DNA of 64,000 bases from assembly GCF_053078305.1 (NCBI RefSeq), contig NZ_CP166879.1. One strand, written 5' to 3'. Below the pieces are notes generated by a model. The model was not told where the DNA came from. It searched no databases and saw only the letters and a program-made list of their open reading frames with translations. The translations under genes were made by a program, and so were the position numbers. Of this stretch, positions 529 to 1,119 are shown one piece after another. The stretch's first letter is position 1. Every line of letters begins with the position of its first letter.

Positions 529-993
529 CCATATAACCCGTTATCTCTTTCTCAAGTTTTTATATTAGCTGTACTTGTAATAAGCAACATATCCACGTAA
601 CACCTCATGTTCAAAATAGTTCCCCATGCCAGATAAGTTCACAATTATCGATACAAAAAATCAAATTTAATCAAAGTGTTATTTGTATAATCCTTAAACC
701 GTTAAGAAATTTTAATATATTATTTTTTTAATATTAATTAATGCCTGTTAATTTTTTCTTTAGAATAACAGTGTATTTTTTAAGCTTGTTATTCATTGAT
801 TAAGTAATAAATCTGGAAATTTGTCTTTGTTTTGAGGCTAATGAGTGGTTTTACATAACCGCCTCTATACGCTGTTGATGAATAGTTCTTATGAATAAAG
901 ATATCCTGTTCATACTTTAAGTGAAAATTGATAAAGTGCGATTCGTATTGTCTTTTATTCTAAAGACATCGAGTGTAGTTAATATTCCTTGTA
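529..993 (+). promoter_or_regulatory. AT-rich leader-like region between the two ygcE-side arrays
   Basis: Very AT-rich non-coding stretch ending ...GTAAAAACAG, which resembles the end of the cas-proximal leader (...GTTTAAAAACAGATATGTATGCTTAGT). Confidence 0.4.
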
Positions 994-1119
994 AAAACAG
1001 GGATAAACCGAACTAGTTAAAGTTTTTATTATGTTCCCTGCATCAGCGGGGATAAACCGGACTTGTTATCATTTTTTAAGTTGTCGAACTTATGTTCCCC
1101 GCGCCAGCGGGGATAACCA
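994..1119 (+). CRISPR. Degenerate CRISPR remnant (CRISPR2.2-3-like): partial repeat plus two mutated repeats
   Basis: GGATAAACCG (3' repeat part) at 1001-1010; ATGTTCCCTGCATCAGCGGGGATAAACCG at 1031-1059; ATGTTCCCCGCGCCAGCGGGGATAACCA at 1092-1119; 32-bp spacer between the last two. Confidence 0.7.

Follow-up and report, generated by a model that had tools for sequence, protein, structure and literature searches.

Is the short array of degenerate CRISPR repeats at positions 982–1119 the remnant of a deletion, or is it being kept for a purpose of its own? The array lies within a window of 64,000 nucleotides, the whole stretch of DNA analyzed here, taken from contig NZ_CP166879.1 of RefSeq assembly GCF_053078305.1. 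An earlier reading made from the letters alone (hereafter the sequence-only reading) had described 529–1119 as a degenerate mini-array with a leader homolog whose leader-repeat junction was deleted, which would probably leave it inert for spacer integration by Cas1-Cas2. The array is indeed degenerate, with a diverged first repeat (psiR1), a mutated second repeat (psiR2) and a mutated terminal repeat. Its first repeat is complete, and the deletion did not happen.

The interval 982–1119 is the CRISPR2.2 mini-array of the Escherichia coli CRISPR-II locus, and the DNA upstream of it is the '0.5 kb' sequence of that locus, already catalogued since 2010. CRISPR-II is ordered queE, leader 2.3, CRISPR2.3, 0.5 kb sequence, CRISPR2.2 and ygcE, and on the plus strand the window runs from the queE side through ygcE, cysJIH, the cas operon and the cas-proximal array to iap. 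The passages that treat the locus in three papers (PMC3903273, PMC4489801, PMC2886076) place it between ygcE and queE (ygcF), about 0.5 kb from CRISPR2.3, with type-2 repeats, and describe it, in the nomenclature of Diez-Villasenor et al. (2010), as three repeats and two invariable spacers. The CRISPR2.2 of the literature is this same locus, no different in sequence from the mini-array of the window, and the structure in K-12 MG1655 is identical. Of 5,426 complete E. coli genomes, 4,114 showed this arrangement in a megablast search with 480–1300, always on the chromosome and annotated as CRISPR beside ygcE. Synteny and annotation across 5,392 E. coli genomes support the same identification. 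The mini-array also has the repeats of a type I-E array (repeat cluster 2), with at least two direct repeats of about 29 nt resembling GWGTTCCCCGCGCCAGCGGGGATAAACCG and a 7-bp hairpin.

Taken by itself, then, the sequence-only reading concerned an ordinary matter, a known locus explained by a deletion that did not occur. The new points on CRISPR2.2 are its 20-nt first spacer, which that reading had overlooked, and its species-wide constancy. The passages on CRISPR2.2 in the three papers make no mention of this spacer length, of hairpin-preserving substitutions in psiR1, or of invariance relative to the flanks. We consider it probable that the locus is best explained by a single account that joins its identity as CRISPR2.2 to the repeat anatomy, the origin, the lack of acquisition and the RNA function described below.

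The first repeat and the anatomy of the mini-array

The mini-array consists of the following elements:

982–1010, plus strand: psiR1, a full-length diverged repeat, ATATTCCTTGTAAAAACAGGGATAAACCG, with 10 substitutions versus the consensus (19 of 29 identical).
1011–1030, plus strand: S1, an invariant 20-nt spacer, AACTAGTTAAAGTTTTTATT, 12 nt (two 6-nt units) below normal length.
1031–1059, plus strand: psiR2, a repeat, ATGTTCCCTGCATCAGCGGGGATAAACCG, 25 of 29 identical to the consensus, with its hairpin intact.
1060–1091, plus strand: S2, an invariant 32-nt spacer, GACTTGTTATCATTTTTTAAGTTGTCGAACTT, which is also the last spacer in continuous 'CRISPR2.2-3' forms.
1092–1119, plus strand: the terminal repeat, 28 nt with a 1-nt deletion, GATAACCA, about 26 of 29 identical to the consensus.

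Positions 982–1010 form a complete, diverged repeat, and because of this no leader-repeat junction has been deleted. The sequence-only reading had the AT-rich DNA (529–1000, 27% G+C, ending in ...CCTTGTAAAAACAG) fused directly to GGATAAACCG at 1001–1010, the last 10 nt of a repeat, with about 15 bp of leader and about 19 bp of the first repeat missing. Both strings are present, but the 10-nt stub is not, as these letters belong to a whole hairpin-forming repeat. The 19 nt held to be missing are in place: compared with the first 19 nt of the neighboring repeat, in the register fixed by the common 3' end, 982–1000 matches at 12 of 19 positions (P = 1.4e-4 from composition), and none of the 454 other offsets in the region gives more than 10. 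Over their full length psiR1 and psiR2 are identical at 22 of 29 positions, in register, and have the derived T9 and A12 in common. A self-repeat search aligned 980–1006 and 982–1027 in register with 1029–1055 and 1031–1076, at 70–74% ungapped identity. The string GTAAAAACAG, which had been taken for the leader end, belongs to psiR1, of which it forms the mutated loop and the 3' stem.

As RNA, psiR1 folds into the canonical repeat structure, ....(((((((....)))))))......., at −7.9 kcal/mol (z = −2.9). Its 10 differences from the consensus comprise two at the 5' end, three in the loop and five in the stem, and the 3' handle AUAAACCG carries none. All of the stem changes pair: positions 8 and 19 form a U.G wobble, and pairs 9-18 and 11-16 have each gone from C-G to U-A, so that 7 of 7 pairs are kept, the stem cells are 100% paired and two of the pairs are compensatory. 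In simulations with 10 random substitutions, all seven pairs survived with P ~0.01, and the combination with an unchanged 3' 8-nt handle had P ~6e-5. Only as plus-strand RNA can the G.U wobbles pair; on the opposite strand they would be C.A mismatches, which points to RNA read from the plus strand.

The canonical hairpin is formed by all three repeats (starting at 982, 1031 and 1092). The sequence-only reading had correctly noted that the two downstream repeats are mutated. The four substitutions of psiR2 lie at position 1, at position 9 (C>U, giving a U.G wobble) and in the loop at 12 and 13, and the terminal repeat has lost one nucleotide. As a degenerate terminal repeat, 1092–1119 is an ordinary case. 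Unlike such repeats, psiR1 and psiR2 stand first or internally in their array, and their changes preserve structure and do not amount to erosion of the 3' end.

The two spacers differ in length, S2 being 32 nt in a period of 61 and S1 20 nt in a period of 49. In register, 12 of the 20 positions of S1 agree with the opening 20 nt of S2 (P ~0.02; P = 0.095 by local alignment). Because of this match and the similarities between the repeats, the 49-bp unit 982–1030 looks like a diverged tandem copy of 1031–1091 that lacks 12 nt, an origin that we regard as moderately supported. We dropped the idea of a split 32-nt spacer, with 12 nt at 529–540 and 20 nt at 1011–1030, as 982–1010 between them is a whole repeat.

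Separately, a perfect palindrome is formed by the first 8 nt of S1 (AACTAGTT, 1011–1018). These 8 nt are complementary to TAGTT, with which decayed repeat relics begin (617–621 and 883–887), and this produces seed-like self-matches near the array that are flanked by AAG or GAG protospacer-adjacent motifs (PAMs), overall at the level of chance.

Conservation of the mini-array and a candidate RNA

We compared nucleotide diversity across the locus in six diverse strains, and counted variable sites in 14 strains that include the divergent EC571 lineage. The intervals compared, with the percentage of polymorphic sites and nucleotide diversity (pi) in the six strains where calculated, are:

617–790: hypervariable middle of the 0.5 kb sequence, with indels; 19–22% polymorphic, pi ~0.095.
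618–640, plus strand: a decayed repeat relic, AGTTCCCCATGCCAG..ATAAG, 13 of 15 matching, with 5 nt deleted; no hairpin is formed, and the sequence is polymorphic among strains.
865–981, plus strand: a conserved segment upstream of the mini-array, with a hairpin at 949–968 and a doubtful 31-aa open reading frame (ORF) at 921–1016; 1.7% polymorphic, pi 0.006.
982–1119, plus strand: the mini-array; 0.7% polymorphic, pi 0.004.
1120–1165: the stretch between the mini-array and ygcE; 17% polymorphic, pi 0.068.
1166–2644, minus strand: ygcE, a kinase of the FGGY family, which flanks the locus and served as the baseline for neutral diversity; third-codon positions 19.7% polymorphic, pi 0.086.

The middle of the 0.5 kb sequence is thus about as diverse as the third-codon positions of ygcE, and the mini-array is roughly 15- to 20-fold less diverse than neighboring neutral DNA. 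Among the 14 strains, 965–1100 contains one variable site, a base in the psiR1 loop. The same contrast appears across complete genomes: 865–1119 is at least 99% identical to the window in 3,089 of 4,163 genomes, 600–854 in 315 of 4,145, and a ygcE segment of equal length in 20 of 5,371. The relic at 618–640, also overlooked in the sequence-only reading, appears to evolve neutrally. Because the mini-array is constant while its flanks, the third-codon positions of ygcE and this relic vary, the comparison argues for purifying selection on the mini-array.

Neither spacer differs among the 14 strains or among about 4,000 genomes, so that none of the spacer turnover expected at a leader end is seen. 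From this genome comparison and the literature, the mini-array takes up no spacers, a finding that fits the absence of recognizable leader motifs beside psiR1 and the divergence of this first repeat. The sequence-only reading was therefore right that the locus is inert for acquisition, and wrong to name a deleted junction as the cause.

The surrounding forms of the locus are more varied. Some E. coli have a continuous array made up of leader 2.3, one or two repeats, S2 and the terminal repeat, and others have leader 2.3 and the terminal repeat only, or nothing. In E. albertii there are leader 2.3 and three repeats, the last of them GATAACCA; the spacers are other ones and the 0.5 kb sequence is absent. 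E. whittamii has leader 2.3 and a terminal repeat with the same 1-nt deletion. As this deletion is common to both species, it predates E. coli. A type I-E array next to queE also occurs in several other genera, so the queE-side leader and the terminal repeat are old. The 0.5 kb sequence and psiR1-S1-psiR2 were found in E. coli only, among the genomes searched.

The conservation of the mini-array suggests a functional plus-strand RNA, perhaps a regulator resembling a CRISPR RNA (crRNA). Transcription of the plus strand would start at the CRISPR2.3 leader promoter and read through into the mini-array, or would start at a putative promoter within 865–981, and Cas6e would cut the three hairpins. 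One product would be a canonical 61-nt crRNA composed of the psiR2 handle, S2 and the terminal-repeat hairpin, and the other a 49-nt crRNA-like RNA with a 20-nt S1 guide. The 12-nt shortfall of S1 equals exactly two Cas7 steps, and E. coli Cascade is known to assemble, with altered stoichiometry, on crRNAs with spacers of ~20 nt (PMC5159557). Selection on both RNAs would account for the substitutions that spare the hairpin and handle, and for the near-invariance of 965–1100. The fuller proposal, that CRISPR2.2 is a selected RNA gene whose RNAs are taken up by Cascade and, through partial pairing, act on a target in the host or in a prophage, is tentative, and as a whole we judge it rather unlikely.

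Such a regulator would have relatives. In CreA (CreTA) and CreR, and in the putative mini-array between cas3 and cas8e (PMC10120712; bioRxiv 10.1101/2024.10.29.618823), degenerate repeats keep the hairpin and handle, as they do in CRISPR2.2. The crRNA-like regulators also have a conserved short spacer-like sequence (24 nt in a type I-E Cracr, 20 nt in CRISPR2.2) and show no spacer turnover. However, they lie within or next to the cas operon, whereas cas3 (17569) and cas2 lie about 16 kb and about 25 kb, respectively, from the mini-array. In CreA and CreR the guide has a PAM-flanked partial match to a cas or toxin promoter, and for S1 and S2 none was found in the window or in the K-12 flanking loci. 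CRISPR2.2 further differs from CreA and CreR in having a second, full-length canonical spacer, and no adjacent toxin candidate was established.

Several results weigh against a selected RNA and the account built around it. No evidence of expression of the locus was found in the supplements of two transcriptome papers or by a literal search for the spacer sequences, and no consensus sigma-70 promoter was found on the plus strand upstream of the mini-array. The best PAM-flanked seed matches of S1 and S2, in the 64-kb window including the cas promoters and in the neighboring loci of K-12, equaled the shuffled expectation of 8/10. No protospacers for either spacer were found in phages, plasmids or IMG/VR, where the spacers gave chance AT-rich matches only, plus one contig carrying the E. 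coli locus itself. Compensatory stem changes could come from templated (quasi-palindrome) mutation without any selection on RNA, and Cas6e is only assumed to accept a stem in which two pairs are A-U and one is a wobble. The diversity figures come from 6 to 14 strains and coarse bins of BLAST identity, and the homology of S1 and S2 is modest at the P values given above.

CRISPR2.2 could instead be a neutral relic, the functionless trailer end of an old array, constant through shared ancestry or a low local mutation rate, with hairpin-preserving changes produced by quasi-palindrome templating. It is common for terminal repeats and trailer spacers to be old and shared (PMC2886076), the searches gave no evidence of a target, promoter or expression, the mini-array lies far from the cas genes (~24 kb), and psiR1-S1-psiR2 or the whole array has been lost in some lineages. 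However, in the same strains 617–790, 1120–1165 and the silent sites of ygcE are some 15- to 20-fold more diverse, and a genuine relic, at 618–640, does decay and vary. All 10 of the psiR1 substitutions spare the pairs and the 8-nt handle, and the G.U wobbles, left uncorrected, are mismatches at the DNA level. A neutral relic is hard to reconcile with this diversity contrast and substitution pattern, and we consider it improbable.

If the proposed RNA gene is real, then the CRISPR model organism that has been studied most would have a regulator of the CreR/CreA type located ~24 kb away from its cas operon. Touchon and Rocha (2010) noted that the oldest spacers of E. coli persist, for a reason not known to them. 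The low diversity of the mini-array, the psiR1 changes that spare hairpin and handle, and a guide shorter by two steps sharpen this puzzle. For E. coli K-12 the hypothesis is that CRISPR2.2 makes Cascade-bound RNAs, and the question is what they bind.

The AT-rich sequence upstream of the mini-array

The sequence on which the sequence-only reading had rested, and the elements with which it is compared, are:

1–528: CRISPR2.3, 3' part.
500–528, plus strand: the last repeat of CRISPR2.3, GAGTTCCCCGCGCCAGCGGGGATAAACCA, with a final G>A; kept in all strains compared.
529–981: the '0.5 kb' sequence, 453 bp long, AT-rich and non-coding, which interrupts the CRISPR-II array.
26484–26579, plus strand: the cas-proximal CRISPR2.1 leader, type A, used for comparison in the sequence-only reading.
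26580–27518: the cas-proximal array.

The 0.5 kb sequence of CRISPR-II has been described before (PMC2886076, PMC10910852). It is single-copy and chromosomal, and within 529–981 we found no ORF longer than 31 aa and no Rfam match. The conservation upstream of psiR1 could reflect the unannotated 31-aa ORF at 921–1016 (plus strand, GTG start, MKIDKVRFVLSFILKTSSVVNIPCKNRDKPN), which overlaps psiR1. In the EC571 lineage its start has changed from GTG to ATG, and the substitutions at 938, 941 and 944, spaced 3 nt apart, are synonymous third-position changes. This period-3 pattern, however, comes from one lineage, with four of five changes in phase (P ~0.14 by hand arithmetic). In SM107, A924T turns codon 2 into a stop. 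The ORF lacks a Shine-Dalgarno sequence, a search of 15 billion predicted proteins did not return the exact peptide, and the invariance of 1017–1100 would be left unexplained. We conclude that the ORF is probably no gene, odd as the pattern is, and very unlikely to be the source of the conservation.

More doubtful still is the model of the sequence-only reading, in which 529–1000 is a leader homolog and a ~34-bp deletion took the leader end together with 19 bp from the start of the first repeat, disabling Cas1-Cas2 integration. The 0.5 kb sequence is AT-rich and abuts the first repeat on the transcribed strand, as enterobacterial type I-E leaders do, a resemblance that is a weak criterion alone. 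A collinear alignment can be drawn by MAFFT, and the 9-mer TAAAAACAG also occurs in the type-A leader, 15 nt from the leader end. The comparison leader does end in GTTTAAAAACAGATATGTATGCTTAGT before a full repeat at 26580, as had been stated.

We assembled ten leaders from eight genera: the type A leader of the window, K-12 leader 2.1 (type T), leader 2.3, and those of Klebsiella, 'Escherichia sp.', Pseudocitrobacter, Phytobacter (two), Pluralibacter and one further enterobacterium. These type I-E leaders align with one another and have in common the motifs AAAATCAA..GTTA and GTTGGTAGA and a TTTAGA junction. Unlike them, the 0.5 kb sequence lacks the AAAATCAA..GTTA motif, the GTTGGTAGA core and the TTTAGA junction, and the array that it adjoins gains no spacers. 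An nhmmer profile of the ten leaders, run against the 64-kb window, recovered the CRISPR2.1 leader at E = 2e-21; the next best match, at 666–686, had E = 24, and there was none at 880–981. Smith-Waterman comparisons were made with two scoring schemes and dinucleotide shuffles. Local alignment of 880–1000 with each of the ten leaders gave z = −1.8 to +1.3, global and local alignment of 641–981 with the 340-bp leader 2.3 gave z ~0, and alignments with leader 2.1 and leader 2.3 gave z of about 0 to 1.9. The sole match between 529–1000 and leader 2.1A was the 9-mer, which 279 of 300 dinucleotide shuffles equaled or bettered, and blastn of 529–981 against the rest of the window did not recover the leader even at E ≤ 50.

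By these comparisons 529–981 has no detectable relation to type I-E leaders, and any homology may have decayed past detection. The sequence-only reading had proposed a leader alignment and named unrelatedness of the 529–993 region as the outcome that would overturn it; that alignment was run and gave this outcome, so the leader claim fails. With the "missing" 19 nt present as half of a hairpin-forming repeat and the 20-nt first spacer unexplained by any such deletion, we regard the model as highly implausible.

Least credible of all is that the 0.5 kb sequence is a mobile or foreign insertion into a repeat: GGATAAACC(A/G) does stand on both sides of the AT-rich block (520–528 and 1001–1009) like a 9-bp target-site duplication, and the block is absent from E. 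albertii, E. whittamii and some E. coli, but the right-hand 9 nt are the plain 3' end of the full repeat psiR1, the block lacks the terminal inverted repeats and extra copies of an insertion sequence or miniature inverted-repeat transposable element, it occurs once per genome and never on plasmids, and no homologs were found in phage or plasmid collections, where three 'plasmid' matches were E. coli chromosomes.

We also considered whether the 0.5 kb sequence is a decayed array, in a 61-bp phase or as three units of ~160 bp, and rejected this: Tandem Repeats Finder reported nothing, and a 29-mer scan returned only 982 and 617. The distance between these two positions is 365, near 6 x 61. Sequences resembling S2 occur at 785–805 (CTTGTTATTCATTGATTAAGT, where the match to a repeat+S2 unit is borderline, P ~0.05) and at 903–922 (CCTGTTCATACTTTAAGT). 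The latter is preceded at 882–900 by TAGTTCTTATGAATAAAG, which resembles a collapsed repeat. These S2-like stretches may be traces of older repeat-spacer units.

In leader 2.3 itself the leader core occurs twice, as AAAGTTTGGTAGATTTT and AAAGTTGGTAGATTGT, at a spacing of about 110 bp (sequence L001, 966–986 and 1078–1098). The E. whittamii leader (sequence L008, 6840–6870) resembles the product of a deletion between these two copies.

Other features of the window

Two further features lie downstream of the mini-array:

1133–1160, plus strand: a G+C-rich hairpin followed by TTTT, a candidate array terminator, in a polymorphic stretch.
17569–20268: cas3, with cas8e starting at 20713.

The four nucleotides after the hairpin at 1133–1160 are TTTT in the source strain and CCTT or TCTT in K-12 and others, so the terminator-like U-tract is specific to the strain. 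Within the cas3-cas8e intergenic region (20269–20712), a solitary repeat-like sequence, GTTCCCCGCGTCAGCGGGGATAAGCCC, lies on the minus strand at 20294–20320, opposite to cas3, and is followed by a hairpin, TGGCGTCATCCGACGCCAGGG. Its position and orientation match those of the putative regulatory type I-E mini-array of E. coli described by Shmakov et al. 2023 (PMC10120712).

The two longer arrays of the window differ in repeat type. The CRISPR2.3 repeats (14–345 and 380–528) are GAG-type (type T), and those of the cas-proximal array (26580–27518) are GTG-type (type A); in K-12 the two types are the other way round, in agreement with the exchange of cas-leader-array modules that has been reported. 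The six leader-proximal repeats of CRISPR2.3 in the window carry a loop change, GCGCTAGCG. Finally, one spacer of the cas-proximal array (27158–27184) is 27 nt long in place of 32, leaving the repeats at 27131 and 27187 56 bp apart.

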